Assembly (NCBI GenBank): GCA_036337945.1
Contig: JAYZDF010000062.1
Location: 29,998 to 93,997, forward strand
DNA length: 64,000 nucleotides
DNA from: Myxococcota bacterium
GTDB lineage: Bacteria; Myxococcota; Kuafuiibacteriia; Kuafuiibacteriales; Kuafuiibacteriaceae
Direction of reading: 5' to 3'
In this document: positions 19,638-55,829 of the stretch, one piece after another
Position numbering within the stretch: the stretch's first letter is position 1
How the letters are laid out: the number at the start of each line of letters is the position of its first letter
Made by a program: the position numbers and the translations under genes
The notes under the pieces: model-generated
What the model was told of the DNA's origin: nothing
The model's input: the letters and a program-made list of their open reading frames with translations, nothing else
The model's database searches: none

Positions 19638-19641
19638 CGTA

Positions 19642-20464: not shown

Positions 20465-21892
20465 ATGAATGCAGATGCGGGAACAAAAAGGGGAATATAT
20501 CAGGTGGAATTGGCCGAAAATCAGCCCAATTGGATCCAACTTAAAGACGCTCTTGCTCGTCGACTTAGCCCACAGGTTTGGGCCACATGGATCAATCAAA
20601 TCAAGTGCCTGGAAGATAATGGAAAAACCCTCAGGATCGGGCTACCTGACACATTCAGTCTGAATTGGGTGAAAGATCACTATCGTCACGTCATTGAAGA
20701 AGAACTTCAAAGTATCGGAAGCATCGACCTTCTCTTCGACCTTCACGAAGTAGAAAAGGAGAAAGAACCCGAACCTTCTGAAGCCCCAAGCAAAGTCGAA
20801 GAAGCCTTACCTATTCCCGAACCAGTAGAAGAAGCACGACCGACATCTTTTCGAAGTAATATTCCAACGCCTTCTCGTCCCCAACTGAACCCTCGATACA
20901 TTTTTTCCAATTTTGTTGTCGGGTCCTCGAACGAACTCGCGTGGTCTGCGGCCCAGGCTATCGCCGAAAACGACCGCCCACCATACAATCCGCTGGTCAT
21001 CGTGGGTGGAGTAGGGTTGGGTAAGACCCATCTTTTGCACGCCATTGGGCACATTTTCCAAAAGAAACGCCCTCAGGCTAAAATTCAGCTCAAAACCAGT
21101 GAAGCCTTCATCAATGATGTCGTTACCGGAATCCAAGAGCATCGTATGCCGCAGGTCCGCTCTCGATATCGCAACTGTGACCTTCTTCTTATCGACGATA
21201 TTCAGTTTATTTCTGGAAAAGGACACTGTCAGGAAGAGTTCTTCCATACTTTCAACGCCCTCTACGACGCTCAGAAACAAATTGTCGTTACCTCGGATCG
21301 TATGCCGCATGAAATCGCAGACATAGAGCAGAGAGTCCGTTCGCGTTTCGCGTGGGGGCTCATTGCCGACCTAAAACTCCCTGAATTGGAAACACGAATC
21401 GCAATCATCCAACAAAAAGCCGCCAACGAAGGGCTTGAACTTGATGAAAGCGTAGCAAAATTCCTGGCGCAGTCCGTTCGGTCCAACACAAGAGAGCTGG
21501 AAGGCTGTATAAACCGCGTTCACGCCATCGCTTCTCTGCGAAAAACCCCTATTACTGTGAGTCTCACCAAAGAGGTCCTGCAGGGTATTATTAGTGACAA
21601 AAGCCAGGCCCTTACCTGCGACAGTATTGTTCGCGCCGTTGCTGCACACTTCGAGATCCGAATATCTGAACTGAAATCGACAAAACGCGCTCGAAATATA
21701 GCGTTTCCCCGGCAAATCGCGATGTATTTATGCCGAAATCATACCAGCGCGTCTTATCCAGACATTGGAAACGCCCTTGGCGGCAAAGATCACAGCACAG
21801 CCATCAACGCCGTGAAGAAGATTACTGAAAAAATTACCGAACCCGATGTGCGAAACCACATCGAAGAAATCGAAAGACAATTGCTCGATTAG
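20465..21892 (+). CDS. dnaA: chromosomal replication initiator DnaA (start taken at MNADAG rather than the upstream ORF start 20354)
   Basis: AAA+ Walker A GGVGLGKTHLLHAIG, sensor motifs, C-terminal DNA-binding domain (KRARNIAFPRQIAMYLCR...STAINAVKKI). Confidence 0.95.
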   Translation: MNADAGTKRGIYQVELAENQPNWIQLKDALARRLSPQVWATWINQIKCLEDNGKTLRIGLPDTFSLNWVKDHYRHVIEEELQSIGSIDLLFDLHEVEKEKEPEPSEAPSKVEEALPIPEPVEEARPTSFRSNIPTPSRPQLNPRYIFSNFVVGSSNELAWSAAQAIAENDRPPYNPLVIVGGVGLGKTHLLHAIGHIFQKKRPQAKIQLKTSEAFINDVVTGIQEHRMPQVRSRYRNCDLLLIDDIQFISGKGHCQEEFFHTFNALYDAQKQIVVTSDRMPHEIADIEQRVRSRFAWGLIADLKLPELETRIAIIQQKAANEGLELDESVAKFLAQSVRSNTRELEGCINRVHAIASLRKTPITVSLTKEVLQGIISDKSQALTCDSIVRAVAAHFEIRISELKSTKRARNIAFPRQIAMYLCRNHTSASYPDIGNALGGKDHSTAINAVKKITEKITEPDVRNHIEEIERQLLD

Positions 21893-22159
21893 AGCCACAG
21901 AGTATTGAAGAGAATTAACCACATGATGTTGTGTGTAACAGCCAAAAGAGCGTCTATAACTTGTGTACAGAGTTGTGATATGCGTGTGGAAAAGAAACGT
22001 GACGAGTTGTACACAATTTATCCAACTTTAATTCACAGTGAAGGGTTGTCTATGATCGAGAATCAAAACAAGGATTTACAAAAGTTATCCACAATTCACA
22101 GCCCCTACTACTACGATCAGTTTATTTAAAATACAGAACAGACTAGGACACAGAAAAAT
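21893..22159. other. oriC: putative oriC: dnaA-dnaN spacer with DnaA boxes and an AT-rich unwinding region
   Basis: Perfect TTATCCACA at 22083-22091; one- or two-mismatch boxes TTAACCACA, TGTGGAAAA and TTATCCAAC; AATTCACAG repeated twice; inverted repeat TTGTGTACA...TGTACACAA; AT-rich tract just upstream of dnaN. Confidence 0.6.
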
Positions 22160-23269
22160 ATGGAATTTAGCATCCCAGTCCAAGAACTCGCAAAGGCTCT
22201 CCAACGCGTTCAAGGAATCATCGAAAAGAAAACCACCATGCCAATTTTGGCAAACGTACTTCTTGAAGCATCGAAGGATGGTTTTTTAAGTGTAGCAGCT
22301 ACCAATCTTGAGATTGGCCTCACTGGAAAATACGCCTGTGACGTTGCTCAAGAAGGTTCGATTACTCTTTCGGGTCGTTCACTGTTCGATATTGTCCGTG
22401 CGCTTCCTAAGAAAATCGCAACACTAAAAAAAGTGAATAATGATTGGGTAGAAATTAGTTGTGGGAAAGTAAACTATCGTGTGGTCGGGATGTCTGCAGA
22501 GGGATATCCAACCTTACCAAGCTTTAGTGATGTTGAATATTTTTCACTGAGCAGTGATGCGTTCAAAGCGATGATTGATAAAACGCTCTACTCAGTTTGT
22601 ACGGACGAAACACGATACAATCTAACCGGAATTTACTGTGAAGCCTTGGCGGATGGAGATGGCATTCGTATGGTCTCAACGGATGGTCATAGACTATCGA
22701 TTGTCGAACAAAATACAAAAGATCAACCGCTTATAAAGAAAGGTATTATCATCCCTAGAAAAGGGATGATCGAATTAAGACGTCTTTTGGATGATGGTGA
22801 AAGTACCGGACAACTAGGCTTCAAAGACAATAGTGCTATCTTCGAAAAAGATGGACTCACACTCACTATGCAGCTCATTGAAGGCGAGTTTCCAGATTAT
22901 AAGCAGGTTATTCCTCAATCTTGCACTAAGAAAGTTATCGTCAATCGTGAGCTCTTCCAGTCTGCTCTCAAGAGAACTTCACTACTTTCACCAGATAAAG
23001 CCCAAGGAGTTCGACTTGACCTCTCAAATGGCAATTTAGCGCTCTCTGCTCATAATCCCGACGTTGGTGAAGCAAAAGAAGATATCGAAATTTCTTATGA
23101 TGGTGAAGAACTAAAAATTGGGTTCAACTACCGCTATATTTCTGATGTTTTACATGCACTCAACCACGAAGAAGTTGAATTACAACTCTCCGACTCTCTT
23201 TCTCCAGGTGTCATCATTGGCGCTGGTACTGAAGACTATCGCGCCATAATTATGCCGATGCGATTATAA
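22160..23269 (+). CDS. dnaN: DNA polymerase III beta sliding clamp
   Basis: 369 aa; MEFSIPVQELAKALQRVQGIIEKKTTMPILANVLLEA N-terminus; three-domain clamp length; C-terminal IIMPMRL. Confidence 0.95.
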   Translation: MEFSIPVQELAKALQRVQGIIEKKTTMPILANVLLEASKDGFLSVAATNLEIGLTGKYACDVAQEGSITLSGRSLFDIVRALPKKIATLKKVNNDWVEISCGKVNYRVVGMSAEGYPTLPSFSDVEYFSLSSDAFKAMIDKTLYSVCTDETRYNLTGIYCEALADGDGIRMVSTDGHRLSIVEQNTKDQPLIKKGIIIPRKGMIELRRLLDDGESTGQLGFKDNSAIFEKDGLTLTMQLIEGEFPDYKQVIPQSCTKKVIVNRELFQSALKRTSLLSPDKAQGVRLDLSNGNLALSAHNPDVGEAKEDIEISYDGEELKIGFNYRYISDVLHALNHEEVELQLSDSLSPGVIIGAGTEDYRAIIMPMRL

Positions 23270-23289
23270 TCTTTTTCTAAGTAATCACG

Positions 23290-24411
23290 ATGCGCATCTT
23301 GTCCGCGCAGATCTCTAATTTTCGAAATATAGAATCTGCAAAGCTAGAATTTTCCCCCGGCGTCAACGCTTTGATAGGCCCCAATGGTCAAGGGAAGACC
23401 AACGCTTTGGAGGCGCTTTATTGCATTGCTGCCTTGAGACCATTGAGAAATGTAACTCGTGCCAATCTTGTCCAGACCGGACACAAGGTCGCAAATATAA
23501 AGGTAGACGTCTCCGTCAAAGCCACAGGCCTAGAGCATGAATTGCAGCAAACTCTTACCTCAAGTAGTCGTAAACTTAGAAAAGACGGAAAGACGACCGA
23601 TGCAAATAATATCCTAGGCACGCTCACCGCTGTTGCCTTCACGCCTGATGACCTTGAAATATCGAAAGGCAGTCCGGACTTACGAAGAAAATTTATAGAC
23701 CGTGCTATCCTCAACACTCGGCCGGCCTATCTCGAGACCGCGCTCACCTATAGTCGAGCAGTTAAATCGCGAAACAAACTCTTATCAGACGATGGTGACG
23801 AGATACTCTTGGATGCCTATGATGAAACCGTGGCTAAAGCTGGCGCTGAAATCGTTCATGCCCGGAAAAATTACTGTTTAGAATTCACTCCCGACGTTGT
23901 CAGATTTTTTGAGGAAATCGCCCGACCTTGCCCAGAAATAACAATTAATTATTCTTCAACGATTGACGAGATCATCGAACTTGAGTCCCTTGATAAAACG
24001 ACCGAAAATTTCATTGAGCTTTTGTATAATCGTCGTCAAAAAGACCGGTGGCGAAAATCAACCACGCGCGGTCCGCATCTAGACGACCTAAAGATTCAAT
24101 TCGATGGTGTTGCTGCCAAAACTCGTGCCTCTCAGGGCCAACACCGAGCGTTGGTTTTGGCGATAAAGCTCGCTGAAATTGTTCATCTAGAGAGGAGTCT
24201 TGAGGAGCCACCTGTTTTATTACTCGATGATATTTCCTCGGAGCTTGATGCTATTCGCTCTGAACAGCTTTTTGCCCAATTGAGTGATATAGATGCTCAA
24301 GTGATCTTGACGACCACCCACGAATCCCAAATTCCAAAGTCGCTCCGTGATTCACTCGAGCCCACAAGAATTTATGATGTTCATTCTGGGAAGTTGTCTC
24401 CTCGAGCTTGA
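23290..24411 (+). CDS. recF: DNA replication and repair protein RecF
   Basis: Walker A GPNGQGKTN; signature/Walker B LLLDDISSELD; 373 aa. Confidence 0.9.
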   Translation: MRILSAQISNFRNIESAKLEFSPGVNALIGPNGQGKTNALEALYCIAALRPLRNVTRANLVQTGHKVANIKVDVSVKATGLEHELQQTLTSSSRKLRKDGKTTDANNILGTLTAVAFTPDDLEISKGSPDLRRKFIDRAILNTRPAYLETALTYSRAVKSRNKLLSDDGDEILLDAYDETVAKAGAEIVHARKNYCLEFTPDVVRFFEEIARPCPEITINYSSTIDEIIELESLDKTTENFIELLYNRRQKDRWRKSTTRGPHLDDLKIQFDGVAAKTRASQGQHRALVLAIKLAEIVHLERSLEEPPVLLLDDISSELDAIRSEQLFAQLSDIDAQVILTTTHESQIPKSLRDSLEPTRIYDVHSGKLSPRA

Positions 24412-32797: not shown

Positions 32798-34165
32798 ATG
32801 AGTGACCACGAGAAATTGCAGAAGACGAAGCTACTCACCGAATTATCGGCGGGACACGGGGTCACAACTCGAATTAATCCGAGTCGAGCTAAGCTGTTTG
32901 TTGCCAATGGGCCAGATAAAGGGAAAACCGTTGAATTGAGCCATGAAAAACTCGTCCTCGGAAGCGGAAGCGACTCAGACATCCAAGTGGTCGACCGAAG
33001 TATCTCTCGCCGCCACGCGAGCCTTTCTCGACAGGGTAATCTGGTGATGATCGAGGATTTGAACTCAACGAACGGTACCTACTTTCGAGATGTCCGGGTA
33101 GGAGCCATCCACCTACCACTGGGGCAAGAAATTCGTTTTGGGCAGATTCGGGTCAAATTTCTGCCAGAAGAGGAGATTTTGGAAATCGCTCCTTCTTCTC
33201 TGCAGAGACTGGGCCCTCTGATTGGTTCAGATCAACGGATGCGAGAAATCTTCACACTCATTGAAGATGTCGGGCCTTCAGACGTGACCGTAGTCATCGA
33301 AGGAGAAACAGGCACCGGTAAAGAATTGGTGGCGCAGGCTATCCATGAGTTCTCGAAACGCAAAAATCAGCCATTTGTCGTTTTTGACTGTAGCAATCAA
33401 CCCCGCGACCTTATCGAGAGCGCTTTGTTTGGTCACATTCGTGGCGCATATACCGGCGCTACCAGTCAGCGGGCCGGAGCGTTTAGTCGCGCAGACAAAG
33501 GGACCATCTTTCTTGATGAGCTCGGGGAGTTCGGAAAAGATTTGCAGCCAAAGCTTCTTCGAGTGCTTGAGGCGAGGCAGGTTCAAAAGGTTGGGGCTGA
33601 TGGTTACGACCCAGTCAATGTACGAGTCATTGCTGCCACCAACCGAAATTTAAAAGCTGAAGTTCGAGCTGAACGCTTCCGAGAAGACCTTTATTATCGT
33701 CTCGCTGTTGTAAAGATGGTCCTACCACCCCTTCGTGAACGGCCGAATGATATTCCGCTGCTTGTCGAACACTTTCTTTCGCTTCACGACGAGCCTTGTA
33801 CGATTGCACCAAAATCTCTTACGACCTTGAAGTCGTACCACTGGCCGGGGAATGTTCGAGAACTGAAAAATATCGTCGACCGGGCTTGTGCTCTCAATCG
33901 TGGACGAAGCGATGTCGATATTTCAGCCTATCTCACCGACCTTGATGAGGTTCGTTCAACCAATCATCTTCAAGTCGATGAGTTTGTATCCTTCAAAGAA
34001 GCTAAGGGTAAAGTCGTAGCTGAATTTGAAACGCGCTACATTGAAACTTTGCTGCGTCAGCACGGAAACAATATCTCTATGGCTTCACGCGAAGCGGGTA
34101 TAGACCGCAAGCACTTCAAAGAGCTTATGAAAAAACATGGAATTCAAGCGAATCCTGATGAGTAA
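32798..34165 (+). CDS. sigma-54-dependent transcriptional activator with N-terminal FHA domain
   Basis: FHA (LVLGSGSDSDIQVVDRSISRRHASL...STNGTY), AAA+ GETGTGKELVAQAIH, GAYTGA (GAFTGA variant), arginine finger region, C-terminal HTH. Confidence 0.85.
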   Translation: MSDHEKLQKTKLLTELSAGHGVTTRINPSRAKLFVANGPDKGKTVELSHEKLVLGSGSDSDIQVVDRSISRRHASLSRQGNLVMIEDLNSTNGTYFRDVRVGAIHLPLGQEIRFGQIRVKFLPEEEILEIAPSSLQRLGPLIGSDQRMREIFTLIEDVGPSDVTVVIEGETGTGKELVAQAIHEFSKRKNQPFVVFDCSNQPRDLIESALFGHIRGAYTGATSQRAGAFSRADKGTIFLDELGEFGKDLQPKLLRVLEARQVQKVGADGYDPVNVRVIAATNRNLKAEVRAERFREDLYYRLAVVKMVLPPLRERPNDIPLLVEHFLSLHDEPCTIAPKSLTTLKSYHWPGNVRELKNIVDRACALNRGRSDVDISAYLTDLDEVRSTNHLQVDEFVSFKEAKGKVVAEFETRYIETLLRQHGNNISMASREAGIDRKHFKELMKKHGIQANPDE

Positions 34166-37078: not shown

Positions 37079-37240
37079 TTCCTTCTTTTACAGTAAAACG
37101 ATCTGCTAAATGTAGGATAATGTAGTATGTGTTTGATTTAATTGGGATTTTGAGGCAACAAAGTCACATGTGCTACCGAAGATACAATTGGTCTAAGACC
37201 ATTGGTCTAGGCATTATACTTTTGAGAGGAGCAAATAGTA

Positions 37241-38305
37241 ATGATCGGATTTAATCCCTACTCACTTAATTCTCATCAGCTGCAGCAAAGCCTCGCCTTT
37301 GCGCATATCCAGGCGGGCAACGCCCACTTTCAACAAGCGGGTGCTTTACTGAATGCATTTCAGCCTCAGATTCCTTGTCATCCTTTTTCGGCAAACCAGA
37401 TGCCTCCGCATGTGGGTTGTATGCCTCCACCAGGACCGGAGTTTTCAAATGCACCCGCTGGTAAAGGTCTTACGAAAAATAAAGATGGCTCAATTACGAC
37501 GGCGGGCGGCTACACGATTAAGCCGGAAGGCCGGAGCAATGCGTGGAACATCACTGGGCCTGACGGCAAGCAGCTGACTCGAGTTTGGGGTGACCCACAT
37601 GTTGATGAAGCCGATGGCACTCGTTGGGATTTCACGAAAACCAGTGATTTTGTTCTTCCTGATGGTACTCGAATCCACTGTAAGACGACCTCTGAAACAG
37701 GAAAAAGTGTATCAAAAGCGCTGACGATCAATAACGGTAATGATGTCGTAAACATCACCGGAATTGATAAAAACAAGCCACAAACCGGCGAGATAAAGAA
37801 TAACGGCTACGAATGGAGAGCGAATCATTTCTCAAAGAATCCAGCTCTCGACGAGTTCAAGCTTGGTGGAAATGGTCCTGGCAATGTTCAATGGTACAAG
37901 TCCACGAGTGGAATCGAAAAAGGTCTCATCACCGGCGCTCACTACGACAAGAAGTCGAAGCAGTATCAGCAGAAAGTTGATGAATCAAAGAAGTACTGCG
38001 TAGACCCAAGTATGACCCCACAAGTTGGATCGCCAGCTTGGGGTAATCAAATGCGCATGGAGATGGCTGATTTGGTGAGTTCGATGTGGATTCATCCTGG
38101 TATTAAGCATTATATTGGCCAATTCCTTGCAGCCGACCACCTGACCAATCAATTGGGCGGAGGAGCCATGGGCGGTCTAGGGACCCACTTTGGCGGGTTC
38201 GGACAAGCGAACCAGGCCCTTGGTAACCTCGGAAATTATCACCAAGCCAATTCTGCAGCGAACCAGTCTTTGATGGCTCTTCGCTCTTCACAATTCTTCG
38301 CGTAG
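37241..38305 (+). CDS. Gln/Gly-rich protein without signal peptide carrying a GDPH autocleavage-type motif (DUF1521/MIIA- or VWD-like)
   Basis: WGDPHVDEADGTRWDFTKTSDFVLPDG fits GDPH-x3-DG-x3-DF-x4-DFVL of metal-ion-inducible autocleavage domains; N-terminus MIGFNPYSLNSHQLQQSLAFAHIQAGNAHFQQ lacks a hydrophobic signal; Gly/Asn/Gln-rich C-terminus. Confidence 0.5.
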   Translation: MIGFNPYSLNSHQLQQSLAFAHIQAGNAHFQQAGALLNAFQPQIPCHPFSANQMPPHVGCMPPPGPEFSNAPAGKGLTKNKDGSITTAGGYTIKPEGRSNAWNITGPDGKQLTRVWGDPHVDEADGTRWDFTKTSDFVLPDGTRIHCKTTSETGKSVSKALTINNGNDVVNITGIDKNKPQTGEIKNNGYEWRANHFSKNPALDEFKLGGNGPGNVQWYKSTSGIEKGLITGAHYDKKSKQYQQKVDESKKYCVDPSMTPQVGSPAWGNQMRMEMADLVSSMWIHPGIKHYIGQFLAADHLTNQLGGGAMGGLGTHFGGFGQANQALGNLGNYHQANSAANQSLMALRSSQFFA

Positions 38306-38316: not shown

Positions 38317-38342
38317 GGTGCTCATTCTAATCGGTGAGCACC
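38317..38342 (+). terminator. hairpin (8-bp stem GGTGCTCA/TGAGCACC, 10-nt loop) between the GDPH gene and the chaperone gene
   Basis: Inverted repeat read from the sequence; no U-tract, so this may be an attenuator or processing site rather than an intrinsic terminator. Confidence 0.25.
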
Positions 38343-38411: not shown

Positions 38412-39023
38412 TTGAAAAAGAAAATTACTGAAATTACAGAAATTCCAGAGATTGATCCCGAACTAAAAAAACTGGCAGAGGCCGACGGCGTAAAAATCGT
38501 CGCTCGCTCTCCTCAACGGCTCAAGCAATTTTTAGAAGGCGCGATCACTTTGGGCGAACTCGAAGGCATTGATAAAGACGTTCAGATGAATATCGCTAAG
38601 AATGGCTTCACGTTGCTCAATCAGGGTAAGTTAGCCAAAGCCAAGACCATTTTTGAAGGCCTGCTAGCGCTGGATCCGTTTGATGCATACTTTCATACCG
38701 CGCTTGGCTCGATCGCTTTTCGAGATAAGGACATGGAAACTGCGTTGAACCATTTTGACAAAGCGCTAAGCATCAATCCTTTTTTCTCTACCGCTCGTGC
38801 GCACCGAGGAGAGATTCGTCTCGCGCGAAATGATTTTACTGGAGCGATCGAAGACCTCATAGAGGCGATCAATGCCGACCCGGAAAATGAACAACCAGCT
38901 ACTCAGCGAGCTCGTGCACTCATCGGTACGATCAAGGAAATCATGGCCAAAATTGAAAAAAATCCCGAGGCAGCCAAATCAGAAGCAGAGAGGGCCTTGA
39001 AGAATCAACAATCAAAAGAATAA
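38412..39023 (+). CDS. TPR chaperone resembling type III secretion class II chaperones (SycD/LcrH/CesD family); TTG start
   Basis: FLEGAITLGEL...IAKNGFTLLNQGKLAKAKTIFEGLLALDPFDAYFHTALGSIAF...NPFFSTARAHRGEIRLARNDFTGAIEDL aligns position by position with LcrH (FLKGGGTIAMLNEI...GKYEDAHKVFQALCVLDHYDSRFFLGLGAC...PRFPFHAAECLLQKGELAEA). RBS GAGG upstream; 9-bp tandem repeat ATTACTGAA x3 at codons 5-14. Confidence 0.55.
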   Translation: MKKKITEITEIPEIDPELKKLAEADGVKIVARSPQRLKQFLEGAITLGELEGIDKDVQMNIAKNGFTLLNQGKLAKAKTIFEGLLALDPFDAYFHTALGSIAFRDKDMETALNHFDKALSINPFFSTARAHRGEIRLARNDFTGAIEDLIEAINADPENEQPATQRARALIGTIKEIMAKIEKNPEAAKSEAERALKNQQSKE

Positions 39024-39093: not shown

Positions 39094-40485
39094 ATGACTA
39101 GAAAAAACCGAGTGCTGATTCTCGACGATGAGGCCAATACTCTTGTTACGCTAAAGCGAGCGCTTGAAATGGAGTCCTATGAGGTTCTCACTGCATCTAC
39201 TATCGCTGAAGCACGAACAAGATTAGCCGAAACGAACCCCGATATATGTCTCTTTGATGTTCGGCTCCCTGATGGTGATGGTATTGATTTGCTTGCATCG
39301 CTGATTCAATCTTCTGATGATGATACCCACGCGTTACCGCCCGTGGTTATGATGTCGGGACACGCCGCCATAGAAGACGCAGTCCGAGCGTTACATTTAG
39401 GTGCTCGAGATTTTCTTGAAAAACCGATTGGTCAAGAACGACTACTCGTAACGCTAAAAAATACTCTCGAGCTGAAGTCTTTGGAGCGAGAAAACCGAGA
39501 CCTCCGAGAAAAAACAGGCGCCAACACAACCAGTATTGAAAAGCTTATTGGGCGCTCAGAAGCTATGACCACCCTGAAGGAACATATTGAACGAGTCGCA
39601 AAAAGCGAAGGCCGAGTTCTCATTACTGGAGAGAATGGTTCCGGTAAGGATCTCATTGCCCGTGCGATTCACGAGTATTCTCTTCGAGCGAAAGAGCCTT
39701 TTATTTCATTGAACTGTGCAGCTGTTCCTAAAGACCTCATCGAATCCGAATTGTTTGGTCATGAAAAAGGTGCGTTTACCGGTGCCGTGTCACGAAAAAT
39801 CGGAAAGTTCGAACGTGCTGATGGCGGAACACTATTTCTTGATGAAGTCGGCGATATGCCGATGGACATGCAGGTTAAATTGCTCCGATTATTGCAAAAT
39901 CATGAGCTGGAGCGAGTTGGAGGCACTTCTCTTATCAAAATTGATGTCCGAGTGATCGCAGCCACGAACAAGGACCTTGAAAAAGAAATCGAAGAAGGAC
40001 GTTTTCGAGAGGATTTGTACTATAGGCTAAACGTTGTTCCTTTGGTTTCTCCGCCCCTTCGTGACCGTAAGACCGACATACCTTTGTTGATCAATCAATT
40101 TCTCAGTGAAGCAAGTGCTAGAAACCATCGAAGACCACCAGAACTTTCTCCCGGAGCGATAGCTTTGTTAAGTAGCTATCATTTTCCGGGCAATGTTCGA
40201 GAACTGAATAATCTCATCGAGCGTATCGTCATCCTCGTTCCCCGCGATAAAGATATGATTTCCGAAGAAGATATTTCCACTTTTATCCCAACGAAAAAGT
40301 ATTCAACAAAGAAGAATTATCGCTCTGGCGTAAAACTATCTGAGCTTGTCCAGGATGCTGAGAGGAGTATCGTCGCGCAAGCTCTTGAGGCCCACAATAA
40401 CGTTGTTGCTGAAACGGCACGCTCTCTCGGTGTCGAGCGCTCCAACTTCCATAAAAAACTCAAGTCTCTTGGTCTGCGTTCTTGA
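39094..40485 (+). CDS. sigma-54-dependent response regulator (NtrC family: REC + AAA+ + HTH)
   Basis: REC with [14 protein letters not shown]+ [22 protein letters not shown]-terminal HTH. Confidence 0.85.
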
Positions 40486-43281: not shown

Positions 43282-46038
43282 ATGACTGTAATTGCCGAAG
43301 TAACAGCCCATGGGCAAAGTATCTGGTTCGACTATATTCAGCGGAATATGATTTGGGACGGAACACTTCATCGAATGGTTATTGAAGACAGCGTTCGAGG
43401 AGTCACGAGTAATCCTTCGATCTTCAATAAGGCCATTGGTGGTTCAAAAGACTACGCCCCAGCGATGAGAGCCTCTGTAGCCAGCGGAGGAACTCCCAAG
43501 GATGTTTTTGAGCGTATTGCGATCACCGACATTCAAATGGCCGCCGACGTTTTGTTTGGGGTCTACAATGAAACTAACGGATTAGATGGTTACGTCAGTT
43601 TAGAAGTTTCTCCGTATCTTGCGTACGACAGTCAAGGAACGATTGAAGAAGCCGAACGGCTTTGGACTGAAGTTGCACGCGAAAATGTGATGATCAAGAT
43701 ACCCGCGACTGAAGAAGGACTTGTGGCGATCGAACATTGCATTGCTTCAGGCATCAATGTGAATGTCACTCTTTTGTTTTCGGTTGAAACGTACGAAGCG
43801 GTCGCTTGGGCATACATAAGAGGACTCGAAGCTCGTGCAGAACACGGCGGAGACTTAACTCACGTAGCCAGCGTAGCAAGCTTTTTCATTAGTCGCATCG
43901 ACGCGTTGATCGAAAAACGGTTTGCTGCCCTCGAATCTGATGCTGATGAAGAAACAAAAAAACTTATGCAAGATTTGAGCGGTAAGATTGCTATCGCAAA
44001 TGCGAAGGTTGCTTACCAGTCGTATAAAAATATTTGTGAGCATGAGCGATTCAAAAAACTTGTCGAACAAGGTGCTCAGCCTCAACGTCTTCTCTGGGCG
44101 AGCACTGGAACTAAGAATCCAGAATATTCTGACGTTCTTTACGTCGAAGAACTAATTGGTCCTGAAACAGTCAACACCGTTCCAGAAAAGACCTTTCACG
44201 CTTTCAAGGATCATGGAAAAAGTGATGCAAAACTACTTGAAGGAATTGATGAAGCTTCTGCTTTAGTAGAGAGCCTTAAAAAAACAGGAGTCGACCTCAA
44301 CGAAGTGACATCAGAACTTCTCGATAAAGGCGTAATTGCATTTGCCGATGCTTTCGATGAACTCCTGGGAACGGTCGAATCACGACGGAGCGACCTTCTT
44401 GATGCTGAACTCAGTTCTGTTTTAGTCAAAGCACCAAATCACATTGAAGAAATTGACCAGACCATCGAGTCACTGCGTAAGAGCGCTTTTGTTCGTCGCT
44501 TGTGGCAGCGCGACTCACGTCTTTACGCCGGAAGTGAAAAAGAAGATCGATGGGGCTGGATGATGCATGCAGATGAGTTAGCGGATCAATTGCTAGGTCT
44601 CTCTGCTTTCGCCGAAGATTTGGAAGATAGTGGTGTTGAGTACGTTGTTTGGCTCGGAACCGGTGGTTCATCTCGATCAGCTCGAGTATTTTCTTCACTT
44701 CTTCCACGCGGCGAGGATGCACCACATTTATTCTTTTTGGAGTCCACGCATCCAGAATCGATTCAGCGGATCGAGAGTCAGATTGAACTTGATAACACGG
44801 CATTCATCGTAGCGAGCAAGAGTGGCACGACAGCAGAAACGCGAACGCTTGCAGACTATTTTTGGGATAAAGTCGGTGAAGAGGCCGTCTGGTATGCCAT
44901 TACCGACCCTGATACAGCGCTGGAAACCTTAGCGGAAGAGCGAAATTTTGCCGGCGTGCTGCACGCAGAACCAGACGTTGGTGGTCGTTTTGCTTCTCTG
45001 ATCGGCTTTGGTCTGGGTGCTCCGGCCCTGCTCGACCAAGATTTAGGTTCTGTTTTATTTCATACAGAAGCAATGATCGGAAGCTGTCACGGTAGCTCTC
45101 CAGCTCCGCAAAACCCAGGTGTTCAGTTAGGTGCGGCGCTGGGTGTTTTTGCTAAAGCTGGTTACAATAAGCTAACTCTTTCTTTATCGCGTGAGTTGAG
45201 TGGTTTTGGTCCATATCTTCAACAACTCGTCGATGAGAGTCTCGGTAAAGATGGAAAAGGCTTAGTGGTCATTGATGGCGAATCAATCACTAGTCCCGAA
45301 AAGTATGGCAACGATCGATTGTTTGTGTCGCTACTGTTGGGTGGAGAGAAGGTCAGCTCCCGCTTGGCTGCTTTAGAGGCTGAAGGTCATCCACATATCG
45401 AAATTCGAATGGACTCCTGTGATATGATTGGTCAGCAATTTTTCTTGTGGCACATAGCTGTCTCTACTGCCGCTCATGTCCTAGAGATCAATCCATTTGA
45501 CCAACCTAATGTGGAATTGAGTAAGAAGCTGAGTCGTGAATTTCTAAGTTCAGAAACGACGCTCGATTTGAATCTTCCTTTATCGGGTGAAGAAGTTCTT
45601 CATGACGATGAAAATGTCACTATTTTCGGAACAAGTACTCTAGGGAGTGTTTCTCGACTTGACGAGACAATCGTAGAATTTGCGAAAGGCGCAGGTACGG
45701 GCGCTTATGCAGCTTTACTTGCTTACGTTGATGAAACCAATGAGACTGAAGAACTCCTACAAGCATTGCGCTTGAAGATTCGAAATCAAACGCACTTGGC
45801 AACAACTCTTGGTTTCGGTCCGTCGTACCTTCATGCGTCTGGCCAACTTCATAAAGGAGGTCCAGACAAGGCACGCTTTGTCGTCTTTACACCGTCTCTT
45901 GAAGATTCAACAACGGAATGTGCCCAATTACTCTGTGCGCAAGCAGCCGGCGACGTTCACGCTCTTCGCCAATCTGGTCGCGACGTTCTTCGCGTTCAAC
46001 TCAAGAGCACGCTGCGTTCTGCCCTCGGTTCGTCGTAG
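43282..46038 (+). CDS. bifunctional transaldolase / glucose-6-phosphate isomerase
   Basis: N-terminal transaldolase (SIWFDYIQRNMI...VTSNPSIFNKAI...IKIPATEEG) fused to C-terminal PGI (GTGGSSRSARVF...). Confidence 0.85.
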   Translation: MTVIAEVTAHGQSIWFDYIQRNMIWDGTLHRMVIEDSVRGVTSNPSIFNKAIGGSKDYAPAMRASVASGGTPKDVFERIAITDIQMAADVLFGVYNETNGLDGYVSLEVSPYLAYDSQGTIEEAERLWTEVARENVMIKIPATEEGLVAIEHCIASGINVNVTLLFSVETYEAVAWAYIRGLEARAEHGGDLTHVASVASFFISRIDALIEKRFAALESDADEETKKLMQDLSGKIAIANAKVAYQSYKNICEHERFKKLVEQGAQPQRLLWASTGTKNPEYSDVLYVEELIGPETVNTVPEKTFHAFKDHGKSDAKLLEGIDEASALVESLKKTGVDLNEVTSELLDKGVIAFADAFDELLGTVESRRSDLLDAELSSVLVKAPNHIEEIDQTIESLRKSAFVRRLWQRDSRLYAGSEKEDRWGWMMHADELADQLLGLSAFAEDLEDSGVEYVVWLGTGGSSRSARVFSSLLPRGEDAPHLFFLESTHPESIQRIESQIELDNTAFIVASKSGTTAETRTLADYFWDKVGEEAVWYAITDPDTALETLAEERNFAGVLHAEPDVGGRFASLIGFGLGAPALLDQDLGSVLFHTEAMIGSCHGSSPAPQNPGVQLGAALGVFAKAGYNKLTLSLSRELSGFGPYLQQLVDESLGKDGKGLVVIDGESITSPEKYGNDRLFVSLLLGGEKVSSRLAALEAEGHPHIEIRMDSCDMIGQQFFLWHIAVSTAAHVLEINPFDQPNVELSKKLSREFLSSETTLDLNLPLSGEEVLHDDENVTIFGTSTLGSVSRLDETIVEFAKGAGTGAYAALLAYVDETNETEELLQALRLKIRNQTHLATTLGFGPSYLHASGQLHKGGPDKARFVVFTPSLEDSTTECAQLLCAQAAGDVHALRQSGRDVLRVQLKSTLRSALGSS

Positions 46039-49779: not shown

Positions 49780-52017
49780 CTATATTCTTCCGACGCTTTC
49801 GCGCGAGGTATTGCTTCGGTCTTCTTTTGATTTTCTCCGCTGCGCCGTCAAAAGGCTCTCCATCAAGAAAAAACAAAGCATCGCTATAAGTAGCCATTGA
49901 GAGAATCGATTTGGATCGCTGTTATTTCCCGTGTCCCACGTAAATGCAGATGCCTCCGCGATCTCATTTTGTTTTTTGATATCTTGCCCTCGAAGTGCTG
50001 CTATCGCTTCTTGCGCAGTGAGTGTCTCAAGGTTCGACTCTTGTCGATCCACATTCACTACAAAATCTTCTTTCGCGACCCTTTGCGACTCACCGCTTGT
50101 AACCGCTTTGACTTGGTAATATCCGGGCAATGCTGTTTTTGTGAACAACCAGTCTTTGTCTTCGAGTTGCGTAGATACTGAATGAATCTCTCCGTTTGGA
50201 TCAGTAATCTCTAACTCGGACACATTTTTCGGGACCCGGATTCTTCTCGCATCTCCTATCAGAGTGCGGCGGTTATCCGGAGGAGCCAGCGCATCACCGA
50301 GATATAAAACGAGTTGCCGAACGAGTGGGACAAAAGCTGGCCGTATCGCTAGGTCGGTCAAATCGCGATCAATAGAAGTTGTGAGGACGATAACTTTACC
50401 GCCGCCTATTTGACTTTCAATGAGTGCAGGCTGACCGTCTTCAAAAGTAGCCAGAACGTCCGCGGACCTGTTCCGATTAGGCTGCAGAAGAAAATAGCCT
50501 TGAGTTCGAGTTGACTTTAGGCCTTGTAAGGCGTCTCCCCGAAAAACAGACAGTACGGGGTGTGCTAGATTCAGTTCCCCGAGCAAAAGCGAATCATCAT
50601 TTTTTTTCCGCTCTCTCAATGCTTTGCGTTCCTTAAATCCGCGATACGTACGAGGAAGCAAGCGAGCAAAAACGCCGTTGAACTGCTCTATATCCATTGA
50701 TTGCGCTGACGAAATCAGTAGGCCTCCTCCCGACTCCACAAAGGTCTCAATCTTTTTTGCATCGCTAGTAGTAATACTATTTACTCCCGCCAAAACAACG
50801 ACGTCGAATAAATCTAGATTTTGGGCTTGCAGGTCATCTGAGAGGATAATTTTGGGTGCTGGTTGCTCGGATGCTCCTGCCGCAAACGCTCTTTCGAAAT
50901 AATAAATCTCGTCCTCTTTTGGTAGTCCGGACGGCTGACCATCGATAATTAGGGTTCGTACCCGCGACTCAATATTCACCATCGCAAAGCGTTGATTATC
51001 CTCTGTAAGCACATCGTCCTCGAGTACAACAGATACAGCAAACCTCTTTTGGTCCGTGAACGAATGTTCTAAAACCCTCTGGGTTTCATTACCTCCAACA
51101 ATACTCACACTCGCTTCAGCGACGGTACCGTCTGGTCCCACCCAATTAATGTTCTTCGAAGCGCTCGTTCCCTTTGAGCTTTCGTCGGAAACATACGAGC
51201 GAATCCGTACTCGTGCCTGCATAGCATTCACTTCCGAACCGGGAGCCGATAGTATTTCCAATTGCGAAATACCATAGTTATCGAACTCTTCTCTGTCTAT
51301 GCTTTCGAATACGTTAACGACGCTCGCATTTATCTCCGGCGTCAACGATGCTGCCTGCTGAAAACTGTGTGCAGCAAGATCAGATAAGATGATAATATGC
51401 TTAGATGTCTCTGTTGCCTCTTTTTGGCTTTCTTTTTGCGAAACGTCTCCGTCTACCGTGCTCAAGAGTTCCCCGGCTACATTGACTGCGTCAGAGATCT
51501 CGGCCGCCGCATACGTCGCTTCAAGGTTTGTGACCGCTTGAAGAAGAGATGCTTTCGCGTTGCTGAATTCTTCGACAATCAATCTGGGTTTGCGTTCAGC
51601 CAATACAATGAGCATCTGATCTGATGCTGTCATTTGCTCAATGATTTGACGAGCGATCGATTTAGCTTCTGCAAATCCTGAGCGCCCACCATCCGGCTTT
51701 GATCGCATTGATAAAGAGCCGTCTATAATCATAACAATTCTCTTTGGGCCCTTGTTTTTGGCCAAAGCGGAGGACTTGACTCCAGTCATAGGGTGAGCCG
51801 CCGCGAAGACAAGGGCTGCGATGAGCAGCATGCGGCATGCAAGCAACAAAAAACGTCTTAGTCGCCACTGGCGTTCAATCCTCTGAACACTACGAATCAC
51901 AAATTCAATTGCCGCAAATTCATGTTTGCGAGGTTTTCTTTTGTGAATGAGATGAATAATGATCGGAATCAAGGCTGCGAGCAATCCGAAGAGCATACCA
52001 GGTTTCAGAAAACTCAT
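49780..52017 (-). CDS. BatA-like N-terminal double-TM / von Willebrand factor A domain protein
   Basis: N-terminus MSFLKPGMLFGLLAALIPIIIHLIHKRKP (BatA-type motif); MIDAS-containing vWA (MIIDGSLSM). Confidence 0.7.
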   Translation of the reverse strand: MSFLKPGMLFGLLAALIPIIIHLIHKRKPRKHEFAAIEFVIRSVQRIERQWRLRRFLLLACRMLLIAALVFAAAHPMTGVKSSALAKNKGPKRIVMIIDGSLSMRSKPDGGRSGFAEAKSIARQIIEQMTASDQMLIVLAERKPRLIVEEFSNAKASLLQAVTNLEATYAAAEISDAVNVAGELLSTVDGDVSQKESQKEATETSKHIIILSDLAAHSFQQAASLTPEINASVVNVFESIDREEFDNYGISQLEILSAPGSEVNAMQARVRIRSYVSDESSKGTSASKNINWVGPDGTVAEASVSIVGGNETQRVLEHSFTDQKRFAVSVVLEDDVLTEDNQRFAMVNIESRVRTLIIDGQPSGLPKEDEIYYFERAFAAGASEQPAPKIILSDDLQAQNLDLFDVVVLAGVNSITTSDAKKIETFVESGGGLLISSAQSMDIEQFNGVFARLLPRTYRGFKERKALRERKKNDDSLLLGELNLAHPVLSVFRGDALQGLKSTRTQGYFLLQPNRNRSADVLATFEDGQPALIESQIGGGKVIVLTTSIDRDLTDLAIRPAFVPLVRQLVLYLGDALAPPDNRRTLIGDARRIRVPKNVSELEITDPNGEIHSVSTQLEDKDWLFTKTALPGYYQVKAVTSGESQRVAKEDFVVNVDRQESNLETLTAQEAIAALRGQDIKKQNEIAEASAFTWDTGNNSDPNRFSQWLLIAMLCFFLMESLLTAQRRKSKEDRSNTSRESVGRI

Positions 52018-52949
52018 GTGAGACTCCCTCGCCCCGATGCCCTAATCGTTAGGTAGCGACTAAGTAATCGAGTCGGAGACTGGTCAGTCCGCACGAGTTC
52101 ATAGTCGACTCGAGCACTACGCGCGCGAACCTTTACGTCATGAAGAAAAGAGTCCATCTCTTTTAGATATGCAGATTTTATCGCGTGGGCATCGATAGGC
52201 ACGCTGCGATCTCCCTCAAGATCGGTAAATAAAGTGCTGCCTTCAAATGGAAAGTCCAACTCATCAGGATCAAGCAAATGAAATAAGGTTACATCGTGTC
52301 GACGGGCCGCGACTCGCGAGAGAGCTTGAAGTGCTTCCGAATTTGTATCAAGCAAATCTGAAAAAACGATGAGAGACATTCGCTTTGATATTCCCTCTGC
52401 TAGTTGATTGAGAGCACTACCGAACCGAGTTGTTCCTGATGACTGTAGTGCTTCTAGTTTAGAAAAAATTTCTTGAAGTTGACCACGTCGGGCACGTGAA
52501 GGAACTTCTATGTTGAACTCATCTGCGAAGCTTGCCAGCCCCACTGCATCGCCTTGTCGAGCGAGAAGATAGGCGAGAGCACCAGCGCAAGTCATCGCGT
52601 AATCTTGTTTACTAAGCTGTTTTTCTGCACCCTCGCGTCGATACTTCATTGACCCCGAGACATCAACTACAAGCAAAGCACTGAGGTTTGCTTCGTCCTC
52701 AAACTGCTTGATGTAGTCCCGATCATGACGTGCATAGGCTCGCCAGTCCAAATGACGAATATCATCGCCCGGCGAGTATTTCTTATGTTCCGAAAATTCT
52801 ACACTGCTTCCGTGATGTTTAGAGCGATGCATACCATGCAAGACGCTGTCGGCGAGTGTTCGAGCGCGAAAACTCAGAGAGCCTATCTCTGCCAGTACCT
52901 CAACGTTCAACTGGCGCTGCTGGCCATTTGTTTTATTCGTTTCACCCAT
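52014..52949 (-). CDS. DUF58 (vWA-like) protein
   Basis: HHGSSVEFSEHKKYSPGDDIRHLDWRAYAR signature. Confidence 0.8.
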   Translation of the reverse strand: MGETNKTNGQQRQLNVEVLAEIGSLSFRARTLADSVLHGMHRSKHHGSSVEFSEHKKYSPGDDIRHLDWRAYARHDRDYIKQFEDEANLSALLVVDVSGSMKYRREGAEKQLSKQDYAMTCAGALAYLLARQGDAVGLASFADEFNIEVPSRARRGQLQEIFSKLEALQSSGTTRFGSALNQLAEGISKRMSLIVFSDLLDTNSEALQALSRVAARRHDVTLFHLLDPDELDFPFEGSTLFTDLEGDRSVPIDAHAIKSAYLKEMDSFLHDVKVRARSARVDYELVRTDQSPTRLLSRYLTIRASGRGSLT

Positions 52950-53973
52950 TCGGTTTGAAGCCTTGCACGACTTCTCTTACGAGGTCTGAAGACGAGACCC
53001 CTGACGCTTCCGCGTGGAAATTAGTGACTACGCGGTGCGCGAGGACAATAACCGCAATATGGCGAATATCTTCAACACTTGGGGTACTTCGTCCTTGAAG
53101 TGCAGCGCGTGCTTTCGCTCCCAAGACTAAGTACTGAGATGCTCTCGGACCAGCTCCAAAAGAAACAAATTCTCGTATTCTCCCGGCCAGTTCGTCCGAA
53201 AGATGTTCGCTACAAGATGCCGGGCGAGTTGCTCGGGTGAGGCCTACTGCATAATGAACAACATTTTCTGCCACCGGCACTCGCCGCACGAGCTCCTGAT
53301 ATTGAAGTATCTTTTCTGGTGTAAGTACCTTCTCGAGCTGAGGTCGCTCCTCACCAGTTGTCGACCGGACAATCTCGATTTCGTCCTGTTCGCTGGGATA
53401 ACCAACGTCGAGCATGAACATAAATCGATCCATTTGCGCCTCAGGAAGAGGATATGTTCCCTCTTGCTCGATTGGGTTTTGAGTTGCAAACACATGAAAC
53501 GGTTGTCCAATAGAATGTGTCGCCCCCGAAGCAGTCACTTGAAATTCCTGCATCGCCTGCAGAAGTGCTGCCTGCGTTTTCGGGGGGGTGCGATTGATTT
53601 CATCCGCGAGGAGAAGGTTTGTAAAAATAGGTCCTTTGACAAACCGAAAGGATCTACGCCCGTCATCGCCTTGCTCCAATACGTCTGTGCCAGTCACGTC
53701 CGAAGGCATAAGGTCAGGGGTAAACTGGATCCGATTAAAGTCCAAAGCCAAAACTTCAGCCAAGGTTTGGATAAGTAATGTCTTCGCTAGTCCTGGAACG
53801 CCTACAAATAATGCATGGCCCTTAGCCAGCAGAGCTATTAGAAGATTTTCGATGACGTCTTGTTGACCAATCACCCTTTGGCCCAGCGCTTTCTTTGTTA
53901 ATTCTGCGGCCTCACTCAACTCCCGAATGAGACTAACGTCGTTTGGCGTTTCATTTGAATTTTGGTCTGTCAT
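52942..53973 (-). CDS. MoxR-family AAA+ ATPase
   Basis: VIGQQDVIENLLIALLAKGHALFVGVPGLAKT, Walker B LLADEINR, 343 aa. Confidence 0.9.
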   Translation of the reverse strand: MTDQNSNETPNDVSLIRELSEAAELTKKALGQRVIGQQDVIENLLIALLAKGHALFVGVPGLAKTLLIQTLAEVLALDFNRIQFTPDLMPSDVTGTDVLEQGDDGRRSFRFVKGPIFTNLLLADEINRTPPKTQAALLQAMQEFQVTASGATHSIGQPFHVFATQNPIEQEGTYPLPEAQMDRFMFMLDVGYPSEQDEIEIVRSTTGEERPQLEKVLTPEKILQYQELVRRVPVAENVVHYAVGLTRATRPASCSEHLSDELAGRIREFVSFGAGPRASQYLVLGAKARAALQGRSTPSVEDIRHIAVIVLAHRVVTNFHAEASGVSSSDLVREVVQGFKPNG

Positions 53974-53981
53974 CAGTTTCC

Positions 53982-55829
53982 TTATTTTCCTAATCGTACT
54001 TTCGTCACATCTTCTGGTGTTGTGGACGCCTCAATCTCTACTTCATGAAGCGTAGGTTCGCCAACCGGTGGAACGAGTTTAATCGTGGTCGGACCTGGCC
54101 GTAAAGTGATTGGTGCTGAAGGTGTACTCATTCCGGTGGCTAAGTCACGGGCTCCATAGTCTCCCTTCTGGACAATAAAAATGCGAGAGAAGCCCGAAGA
54201 TGAAAACTGAACCCGTGCGCCAGACCCGAGGTCTGGTGCACGTGGCCGGAATGACTGTTGCAAAACACCCAGTGCGATTTGTGCTTGCTCAATTTTTTTA
54301 CGGTTCCCTTCTGGACCTAAAACAGCGAGAAGCAGACTATGGACTCGGGGGTCAAAGGGATTAATATCAATCGCTGTATCAAGAGGCTCCATAGCTTCAT
54401 CACTACGTTCTTGTCGCACAAGAGCCTCTGCGAGAGTGAGGTTGGGTCCTGGCAAATCTGGCACTCCATCGATAGCGCGCTTTGCCGCTTTCTCTGCACC
54501 CGGCAGATCATTCACAGCGAGTGCTATATTGGCAATCTTTGCACTGAGCAGTGGTGATTCAGTAATCGTGTACGCTTTTTCTAACTCTTTCTGAGCTGCC
54601 ACCATTCGCCCGCGAGCGTATAAAAGATCAGCGGCACGGGCGAACCGTCGAGCTTTTTTCGACAGCCCATGGAATTTGTCGTCAGGGGTGTTGCTTCGCT
54701 TTTTGATTACCAGCTCACGGTCTTGCCCTTTTTGTCGGCCTGCTGTGAGAATTTTACGCTTCGGAAGGGCAGCTTTCCATTTCTCTGTAAGCGCTCCAAA
54801 CGGCATCCCGTGAATTTTTTCAATAGCGACTTCCATGGGCACACCTTTCGATAGTGAAGCGAGAAGTTCTCGCATCCCTTTCCAGCCTTTGCGTTCACAG
54901 AGAAACTCGATGAATGTAAACACTTCCGAAAAAGCGAGCGAGGACTCTTCCTGGGTTTCCAGTTTCGCCATTGAAGGATGCATTTTTGCAAATGGAATCA
55001 GAGTTCCCTTCTTGGCCGCCTCTTTGAGTCGCTCTTGTGCTTCTACTGAAAGAGCTAAGCCAGGTTCTGCCCTCCATGCTGTTTCCGTGAATTTTGCGAT
55101 ACCTTCATGCAGCCAAATAGGGACGGAGTTTTTGGAGACACCACTGATCAACAAGTGAACAAGTTCATGGGAAAGAGTGTCGCGCCATCGATAGCCAAAC
55201 ACAATGGCGCGAGGTGTGGTCACCATTAGGCGATTCCATTTGCAAAGCGCAATCGTGCCCGAGTTGGCAATTTCTTCCTCCGTGAGCGTTGAGACCGCTG
55301 CGAGGGTAGCCGCGCTAGGATAGAACTCTACGATAATCCTTGAGCTTGGCTTCCACCCTAACAACTTGCCCACGCTATCCAAAGTCATCTCAAGCGTATC
55401 AATGGCGTAGGGAACAAGCACTGCGTCTTTCCCTGGTTCGTGTCTAACAATAAAGTTTTCGCTTACTGTCTCGACGTACCCTTTGGTTGCAACCTTTGCC
55501 GCTTCTGCGAGAGGAGCGTCAGACAATACGACATCTGGTGCTCCATTTTTCTTTGCCGCCTCGAAATAATGTACGGCGCCCGCATAATCAGACGTTTGTA
55601 ATTTAACTTGGGCCAACAGGGACAGTACGAGAGGGTCGTCGGGGTGCTCGTCGTATAGTTCTTCCGCGATTTCCCGAGCTTTATCGATTTGCCATTCTTG
55701 AATCGATTCGAAACCAGCTTTTAACGCGTCTAGAGATGGTTCTGCCTGCGCATTTTGGCTGCCGCCAAAACCAGTGATGAGTGCCATGGCAAAGACGGAG
55801 ACTAACTTGGCGAACCTTGCTTTGTTCAC
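53982..55829 (-). CDS. secreted TPR protein with HExxH zinc-peptidase-like (peptidase MA-type) motif
   Basis: Signal peptide; SHELVHLL HExxH; TPR-like repeats. Confidence 0.55.
   Translation of the reverse strand: MNKARFAKLVSVFAMALITGFGGSQNAQAEPSLDALKAGFESIQEWQIDKAREIAEELYDEHPDDPLVLSLLAQVKLQTSDYAGAVHYFEAAKKNGAPDVVLSDAPLAEAAKVATKGYVETVSENFIVRHEPGKDAVLVPYAIDTLEMTLDSVGKLLGWKPSSRIIVEFYPSAATLAAVSTLTEEEIANSGTIALCKWNRLMVTTPRAIVFGYRWRDTLSHELVHLLISGVSKNSVPIWLHEGIAKFTETAWRAEPGLALSVEAQERLKEAAKKGTLIPFAKMHPSMAKLETQEESSLAFSEVFTFIEFLCERKGWKGMRELLASLSKGVPMEVAIEKIHGMPFGALTEKWKAALPKRKILTAGRQKGQDRELVIKKRSNTPDDKFHGLSKKARRFARAADLLYARGRMVAAQKELEKAYTITESPLLSAKIANIALAVNDLPGAEKAAKRAIDGVPDLPGPNLTLAEALVRQERSDEAMEPLDTAIDINPFDPRVHSLLLAVLGPEGNRKKIEQAQIALGVLQQSFRPRAPDLGSGARVQFSSSGFSRIFIVQKGDYGARDLATGMSTPSAPITLRPGPTTIKLVPPVGEPTLHEVEIEASTTPEDVTKVRLGK

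Follow-up and report, generated by a model that had tools for sequence, protein, structure and literature searches.

We analyzed a 64,000-nucleotide stretch of DNA, hereafter called the window, from a Myxococcota bacterium of the family Kuafuiibacteriaceae (contig JAYZDF010000062.1). At 37241-38305 it carries a gene for a DUF1521-family protein, which is followed on the same strand by a gene for a protein with three tetratricopeptide repeats (TPR) (Table 1). With moderate confidence, we consider the two genes to form a substrate-plus-chaperone module of type III-type export, the substrate of which would cleave itself after export. An initial annotation had described the first gene product as a signal-less secretion substrate with a GDPH self-cleavage motif; the open reading frame (ORF), the quoted motif peptide VWGDPHVDEADGTRWDFTKTSDFV (encoded at nucleotides 37583-37654) and the tail ...ANQSLMALRSSQFFA directly before the stop codon were all located where it had placed them, and its reading of the product as a putative signal-less DUF1521 secretion substrate is supported by the comparisons below.

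Table 1. Genes, protein regions and flanking elements at the DUF1521-TPR locus (positions in the window)
Feature	Position	Strand	Remarks
Conserved intergenic block ATTTTGAGGCAAC..GTC.CATGTGCT.CCGA.GATACA	37147..37186	+	40 nt, upstream of the DUF1521 gene
Shine-Dalgarno sequence GAGAGGAG	37224..37231	+	9 nt before the ATG; read from the sequence
DUF1521-family protein gene	37241..38305	+	ORF with ATG start; 354 aa, 38.2 kDa, pI 8.7
N-terminal region, aa 1-59	37241..37417	+	Nearly uncharged; Gln/Ser/Asn-rich; sequence variable
Cys/Pro linker CMPPPGPEFSNAPAGKGLT, aa 60-78	37418..37474	+	Family consensus GC.P.P....SGAPAGKGL
DUF1521 (MIIA-type) core, aa 79-180	37475..37780	+	Part homologous to NopE-type domains
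GDPH motif, aa 117-120	37589..37600	+	Predicted scissile bond between D118 and P119
Clade-specific middle region, aa ~215-315	37883..38185	+	Predicted beta strands to ~247, then two predicted helices
C-terminal tail FGQANQALGNLGNYHQANSAANQSLMALRSSQFFA, aa 320-354	38198..38302	+	Conserved; predicted amphipathic helix
10-bp hairpin GGTGCTCATT/GGTGAGCACC	38317..38342	+	In the 106-nt spacer between the DUF1521 and TPR genes; no T-run
Three-TPR protein gene	38412..39023	+	203 aa, TTG start, GAGG 6 nt upstream; 106 nt past the DUF1521 gene

A Pfam search with the first protein returned a single family, DUF1521 (E=2.8e-15, 57.2 bits against a gathering cut-off of 23.6), which confirmed the family that had been proposed; its accession is PF07481 and not PF07485, as had been given. 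The match covers aa 79-180 and profile positions 6-110 of 169. Alignment by hhalign with the DUF1521 domains of NopE and Bosea proteins gave a probability of 98.7% (E=2.2e-16) over 96 columns, aa 82-177. The claimed likeness to the DUF1521 domain of NopE1 therefore holds for a homologous core and is restricted to about 100 residues of the MIIA domain (for metal-ion-inducible autocleavage). In an alignment of 27 relatives, the residues G117-D118-P119-H120-V121, D125, G126, W129, D130, F131, F137, L139 and P140-D141-G142-T143 were invariant. GDPH itself was found in 353 of the 361 family members retrieved, the exceptions being fragments or variants reading GHPH, GQPY or GEPY, and the longer pattern [VI]WGDPHV.E.DG was nearly invariant across ~350 sequences that share 35-50% overall identity. 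Because GDPHV and its flanking residues are conserved to this degree, the match in the GDPH region is not due to chance.

The position of the predicted cut is taken from VIC_001052 of Vibrio coralliilyticus, a 370-aa protein encoded in a type III cluster that cleaves C-terminal of the Asp (D116) in its GDPH motif upon binding of Ca2+ or Mn2+ (PMC6506597). By this precedent the scissile bond of the window protein would lie between D118 and P119, and the predicted fragments are 12.5 kDa (aa 1-118) and 25.7 kDa (aa 119-354). The AlphaFold2 model contains a confident beta-rich core at aa ~70-300 with pLDDT values mostly of 74-94. Within aa 79-180 they are mostly 83-94, with lower values of 74 (aa 111-120) and 73 (aa 151-160) and a dip to ~50 in the segment that immediately follows GDPH (aa 121-130). 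The two ends, aa 1-65 and 305-354, are modelled with low confidence. A Foldseek search of the PDB with this model retrieved no solved structure at E<0.001.

The initial annotation had also likened the motif to VWD domains. VWD domains, such as those of FCGBP and mucins, do share the pattern WGDPH-x-x-x-DG-x-x-(W/F)DF-...-(F/Y)(V/L)L and its spacing, and the sole match in a sequence search of the PDB was the VWD protein FCGBP (E=4.5e-9 in the single-sequence search). The individual FCGBP alignments, however, are stretches of 23-29 residues around the GDPH motif with i-E values of 0.47-260 each, which sum to E=7e-10. There was no match to the Pfam VWD family (PF00094) at E<=1, and Foldseek detected no similarity to any solved VWD assembly. 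The resemblance thus stands at the level of a 23-29-residue motif, from which common ancestry does not follow.

The termini of the protein are consistent with a substrate that lacks a Sec signal. As had been described, the N-terminus is polar: aa 1-78 contain one acidic and one basic residue, 11.5% Gln and no hydrophobic segment, and a Sec-like N-terminus is judged to be absent from the missing basic and hydrophobic N-terminal residues. The highest 19-residue Kyte-Doolittle mean is 0.53, in agreement with the predicted lack of transmembrane helices, and the protein shows none of the hydrophobic segments of SctE/SctB (YopB/YopD-type) translocators. The N-terminal ~60 residues are poorly conserved in the 27-sequence alignment and have pLDDT values of 35-51; aa 1-59 may represent a type III export signal or chaperone-binding region. 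Class II chaperones bind a hexapeptide of the form P/V-x-L-x-x-P, and inspection of the N-terminal region by eye revealed no conserved match to it. In the adjoining Cys/Pro linker, P62, P64, P72 and G76 are invariant and A73, G74 and L77 are at least 90% conserved in the same alignment. This linker precedes the DUF1521 core in most family members, type III-linked ones included. A lipoprotein reading of its conserved 'GC' was rejected because no hydrophobic signal segment, and hence no lipobox context, precedes it.

At the other end, the last 60 residues contain 18% Gly, 10% Asn and 10% Gln (the whole protein contains 12% Gly and 4 Cys), which agrees with the composition first reported. The likeness to harpins and flagellar-type export substrates that had been drawn from it found no support: the protein has 4 Cys and no harpin family match in Pfam or NCBIfam, and its Gly-rich stretch is not of low complexity but consists of a GG..F motif and a helix after it, both of them conserved. 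This C-terminal helix, at aa 320-353, is predicted at low pLDDT. The family hidden Markov model (HMM) matches the type III-linked relatives in two pieces, the core at model positions ~30-233 and a separate C-terminal tail at ~334-371; the middle region of the window protein (aa ~215-315) is not common to them. The tails of the Acidobacteriota and Cystobacterineae proteins, for example ...LSDQMSAFRNRAIYA and ...LNDTVFAMRNRTAFV, are clearly related to the ...ANQSLMALRSSQFFA of the window protein.

Searching 5.8 billion proteins yielded 431 relatives, most of them 350-400 aa long and all carrying PF07481; those with names were labelled "DUF1521 domain-containing protein" and came from Myxococcota or "Deltaproteobacteria" metagenome-assembled genomes. 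The nearest sequences were from marine metagenomes. In an exhaustive profile search, 677 of 1.84 billion cluster representatives matched at E<=0.001, which marks the family as rare. The exact window protein was absent from the lookup, and a 99%-identical copy (P0001), present on contigs of 853 kb and 408 kb with the gene order of the window, stood in for it. In some loci the DUF1521 unit lies inside much larger proteins of 846 and 1663 aa (L009:9890-12430 and L018:9761-14752), and in two others (L016 and L059) tandem duplicated units resemble the two-domain NopE proteins.

NopE1 and NopE2 of Bradyrhizobium are type III-secreted proteins that undergo Ca2+-dependent autocleavage and act in plant hosts. 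A tblastn search against plasmids found NopE-like proteins of Bradyrhizobium with two domains each, 32.6% identical to the window protein over aa 81-210, and a Bosea plasmid on which the DUF1521 gene adjoins sctS, sctT, sctU and a secretin gene. The window protein has the DUF1521 domain and the core GDPHVD..DG..DF..F.L.DGT.I in common with them. It differs in that NopE-type proteins contain two full 169-position domains, the NopE and Bosea proteins covering PF07481 positions 1-163 of 169 at 220-590 bits, whereas the window protein has one partial match of 57 bits. No TPR homolog was found near the Bradyrhizobium or Bosea DUF1521 genes, and while NopE proteins act in plant hosts, the lineage of the window is one of marine Myxococcota. 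The resemblance to VIC_001052 is closer in layout (length of 370 versus 354 aa, GDPH Asp at D116 versus D118, a DUF1521 core and no signal peptide). In contrast to VIC_001052, the window protein shares only ~100 homologous residues of the domain, its domain is basic instead of strongly acidic and does not keep the proposed EF-hand-like loop, its C-terminal tail is conserved, and its gene comes with a dedicated TPR partner but is unlinked to type III genes. Judged by its sequence, the window protein is a divergent, distinct and rare subtype of the DUF1521/MIIA family.

The TPR protein encoded downstream resembles type III chaperones in fold. Its AlphaFold model (pLDDT 91.5) had as its top four Foldseek matches in the PDB the structures 2vgx (SycD; TM 0.81), 3gz1 (IpgC), 3wxx (AcrH) and 4nrh (Scc3), and a profile built from 33 TPR homologs matched PcrH, SycD and AcrH end to end at E ~1e-15. 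The best NCBIfam model was LcrH_SycD (TIGR02552), matched over model positions 2-129 of 136 at 60.6 bits, which is below its equivalog cut-off of 104.8. Generic TPR proteins score in a comparable range, so that the assignment as a chaperone is based on the combination of fold rank, size and context. The protein shares with SycD, IpgC, PcrH, AcrH and Scc3 the all-helical three-TPR fold of ~140 residues and a gene that adjoins that of the presumed substrate. Unlike members of the LcrH/SycD class, it has additional 40-residue extensions at both the N and C termini, and its partner is hydrophilic and not a membrane-inserting translocator. We regard it as a candidate for the type III secretion chaperone that serves the DUF1521 protein, of class II (translocator-type).

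Conservation of the gene pair was assessed in a scan of one genome per species, which returned 80 DUF1521 loci from Myxococcota, Eisenbacteria, Thermoanaerobaculia, Acidobacteriota (Pyrinomonadaceae), Archangium, Cystobacter, Hyalangium, Corallococcus and Myxococcus. A pairing was counted when a TPR homolog started <=900 bp downstream on the same strand, for which 77 loci had room. Of these 77 loci, 62 had a TPR homolog as the direct downstream neighbour of the DUF1521 gene. The other neighbours varied among the loci of relatives, and no alternative secretion or partner gene recurred near the pair. In Pyrinomonadaceae the pair is embedded among genes for a sigma factor, SctO, an SctP-like protein, SctD, SctV, SctJ, SctL and SctN; a gene of the sigma-70 family lies directly upstream of the DUF1521 gene there. 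In Archangium and Cystobacter the pair sits between SctR/SctU and SctV, and in Myxococcus dinghuensis SctV adjoins it. A SycD/IpgC-like gene downstream, its pairing with DUF1521 in 62 of 77 loci and the presence of the pair in type III clusters provide independent support for the idea of secretion.

With the M. dinghuensis protein as query, we found MXAN_2458 of Myxococcus xanthus DK1622, where the gene order is sctN, sctO, sctP, sctQ, fliO, sctR, sctS, sctT, sctU, TPR, MXAN_2458, TPR, TPR, sctV, sctD. In the core, MXAN_2458 and the window protein share 46% identity (E=1e-30), and the two proteins each score ~56 bits against PF07481, matching only the first two-thirds of the model. MXAN_2458 is likewise a DUF1521 protein (388 aa) with the same type of C-terminal tail, and a TPR protein (168 aa, ~35% identical to that of the window) is encoded 60 bp downstream. 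The two loci differ in that MXAN_2458 lies between sctU and sctV, whereas the window pair is unlinked and near dnaA, and the middle regions of the two DUF1521 proteins are unrelated. The three TPR paralogs of the M. xanthus cluster (7688-8164, 11227-11733 and 12387-12851 in locus L091) are SycD-like and 32-35% identical to the window TPR protein. Only one of them follows a DUF1521 gene; the others adjoin ORFs of 159, 193 and 125 aa without a family match, which may encode further substrates. The cluster, MXAN_2434-2464, is that of the M. xanthus system designated T3SS*, which has no needle, secretin or translocon genes and whose effectors were stated to be unknown (PMC10433427; PMC12075869); a review notes "several LcrH homologues" in it (PMC10433427). 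Our literature search for DUF1521 in myxobacteria and for MXAN_2458/2459 found no mention of them.

From these relationships we infer chaperone binding, export, metal dependence and cleavage between D118 and P119 in the following way. The signal-less DUF1521 protein would be made in the cytoplasm and kept export-competent by the SycD/IpgC-like TPR chaperone, the contact probably being made with the Cys/Pro linker or with one of the ends (the uncharged N-terminal region or the conserved C-terminal helix). Export would proceed through an apparatus of the type III kind, the genes of which would lie at another site in the genome. After its exit from the cytoplasm, the beta-rich DUF1521 core may fold, promoted by Ca2+ (millimolar in seawater) by analogy with NopE1 and VIC_001052, and the Asp118-Pro119 bond would then break to release the fragments of 12.5 and 25.7 kDa.

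Several observations weigh against this export-and-cleavage reading. The whole ~170-residue MIIA domain is not present, its C-terminal third being replaced in the window protein. The MIIA domain of VIC_001052 is a disordered one of acidic character, in which 42 acidic residues face 21 basic ones (PMC6506597), whereas the window domain is basic, with 21 acidic and 25 basic residues and a pI of 9.05. The stretch that aligns by spacing with the proposed EF-hand-like loop of VIC_001052, DSDQKGDLEVKE, reads DKNKPQTGEIKN in the window protein; the loop is not kept, and Ca2+ dependence is therefore doubtful. With the charge inverted and the loop missing, metal dependence would be the weakest link of the proposal. 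The scores of the TPR protein, below the equivalog cut-off and within the range of generic TPR proteins, count against it as well, as do the 15 of 77 loci without a directly adjacent TPR gene. Finally, type III genes were not found nearby: a tblastn search with seven related-locus proteins (SctV, SctJ, SctD, SctO, SctP, SctL and SctN) found none in the 64-kb window, Pfam and NCBIfam searches of most of its large ORFs gave no type III gene, and there was none within 10 kb of the gene in the ~30 closest full-length relatives (L001-L036).

Three alternatives were weighed. The DUF1521 protein could be a 'middle' or structural substrate, taking the place of the tip, translocator or conduit that needle-less systems lack; it would be the first to be exported, would assemble by means of the helices at its N and C termini and would mature by cleavage at GDPH. 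The partner does resemble translocator-class (class II) rather than effector-class chaperones, and the gene is usually single, embedded in the cluster and conserved across two phyla, unlike typical variable effectors. The predicted terminal helices flank the beta-rich core, the C-terminal one being conserved across clades, and such a stand-in would suit the M. xanthus T3SS*, which is devoid of needle, secretin and translocon genes (PMC10433427; PMC12075869). However, class II-type chaperones also bind non-translocators, as Scc3 does with CopN, the hydrophobic segments of the SctE/SctB kind are absent, and no similarity to tip or needle families was found in Pfam, NCBIfam or Foldseek searches. 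The terminal helices are modelled with low confidence, and in the clade of the window the pair is unlinked from apparatus genes. We consider a structural role unlikely.

The lack of linkage also invites the view that in the lineage of the window the pair acts independently of type III secretion, the DUF1521 protein being intracellular or leaving by another route and the TPR protein being a generic adaptor or regulator. The absence of type III genes from the 64 kb and from the 10-kb surroundings of the closest relatives is in line with this, as are the housekeeping, origin-proximal setting, the sigma-54 response regulator gene that comes next in close relatives and TPR sequence scores in the generic range. 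Against it stand the presence of the same module inside type III clusters of four genera in two phyla, the conserved C-terminal tail that the window protein has in common with type III-linked proteins and the lack of any other secretion or partner gene that recurs nearby. Moreover, it is common in type III systems for effector or substrate genes to lie apart from those of the apparatus. A type III-independent function in this lineage appears improbable to us. We likewise doubt that the domain, as a truncated and basic relative of DUF1521, has ceased to cleave itself and keeps GDPH for a role in folding or binding, as the unconserved last third of the MIIA domain and proposed Ca2+ loop and the inverted charge might suggest, since near-invariance of GDPH and its flanks in ~350 sequences is the pattern expected of a catalytic or scissile site and cleavage at the GDPH motif also takes place in VWD scaffolds, which are unrelated.

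Upstream of the DUF1521 gene, the intergenic block at 37147-37186 is near-identical in the relative that encodes a 79%-identical protein, in contrast to the intergenic DNA on its flanks, which has diverged. The block may act as a promoter or operator; the GGCAAC-N17-CGA within it is weakly reminiscent of promoters of the extracytoplasmic function (ECF) type. No sigma-70 consensus was found upstream of the gene, nor was a sigma-54 promoter, matches to the latter in the window being at chance level (30 versus 28 expected). The hairpin between the two genes is present in the centroid structure of the RNA fold (z=-2.0 for the 115-nt spacer). It was dropped as a functional element, as it is not conserved in the 79%-identity relative.

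Pfam and NCBIfam annotation of most large ORFs of the window gave housekeeping genes, among them an origin region, haem genes, regulators, a Bat/MoxR operon and a transaldolase/phosphoglucose isomerase (Tal/PGI) fusion. The origin neighbourhood (16296-24411) comprises jag, yidC and rnpA on the minus strand, followed by dnaA (20354-21892), dnaN and recF on the plus strand; the GC fraction falls to 0.426 at 22-24 kb, and the DUF1521 gene is ~15 kb from dnaA. A gene for an FHA-domain sigma-54 activator (32798-34165) lies upstream of the DUF1521 gene, and one for an NtrC-type sigma-54 response regulator (39094-40485) directly follows the TPR gene, a position that is kept in close relatives. The 79%-identical relative keeps the order hemY, DUF1521, TPR, sigma-54 regulator, kinase, PP2C, Tal/PGI. 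In the window the fusion gene (43282-46038) encodes a 918-aa bifunctional transaldolase/phosphoglucose isomerase (NCBIfam NF007080, 1037 bits). Further downstream, an operon on the minus strand at 49780-58993 comprises BatA/VWA, DUF58, MoxR AAA, TPR-peptidase and DUF4175 genes ('Bat' aerotolerance-like), and in the region of the 1055-aa DUF4175 gene, at 56-58 kb, the AT skew reaches an extreme value of -0.354.

In four Pyrinomonadaceae loci (L039:11478-13385, L049:11551-13398, L052:11530-13569 and L074:12224-13807) the type III cluster also encodes, downstream of the pair, a protein of 530-680 aa that ends in a toxin domain of the CdiA-CT RNase A type; a CdiI_2 immunity gene comes next. Its gene comes directly after the DUF1521-TPR pair in L039, L049 and L052, and a 256-aa ORF lies between them in L074. 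By its appearance this is a polymorphic toxin carried as cargo by a type III locus. A large survey stated that classical polymorphic toxins do not appear to use the type III secretion system (PMC3482391).

To our knowledge, studies of DUF1521/MIIA proteins have been confined to one symbiont, a rhizobium, and one pathogen, of corals, in which they are type III-secreted proteins with Ca2+-triggered self-cutting. The subtype described here travels with its own SycD-like chaperone gene and occurs inside the type III clusters of predatory myxobacteria and Pyrinomonadaceae. Its basic charge and the missing Ca2+ loop bear on how general the metal-triggered GDPH mechanism is. As the effectors of T3SS* were reported to be unknown and several LcrH homologues were noted in its cluster (PMC10433427), MXAN_2458 and its putative chaperone represent a concrete first candidate for a substrate of that system. 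More speculatively, and with little confidence, the type III systems of Myxococcota that lack needle and secretin, together with related ones in Acidobacteriota, may have in the DUF1521-TPR pair their conserved core substrate module, the chaperoned, self-cleaving substrate replacing the missing tip or translocator or serving as an export-coupled cation sensor or plug. If so, MXAN_2458 would be the first T3SS* substrate identified in M. xanthus, and the marine lineage represented by the window would have kept the module detached from the apparatus genes.

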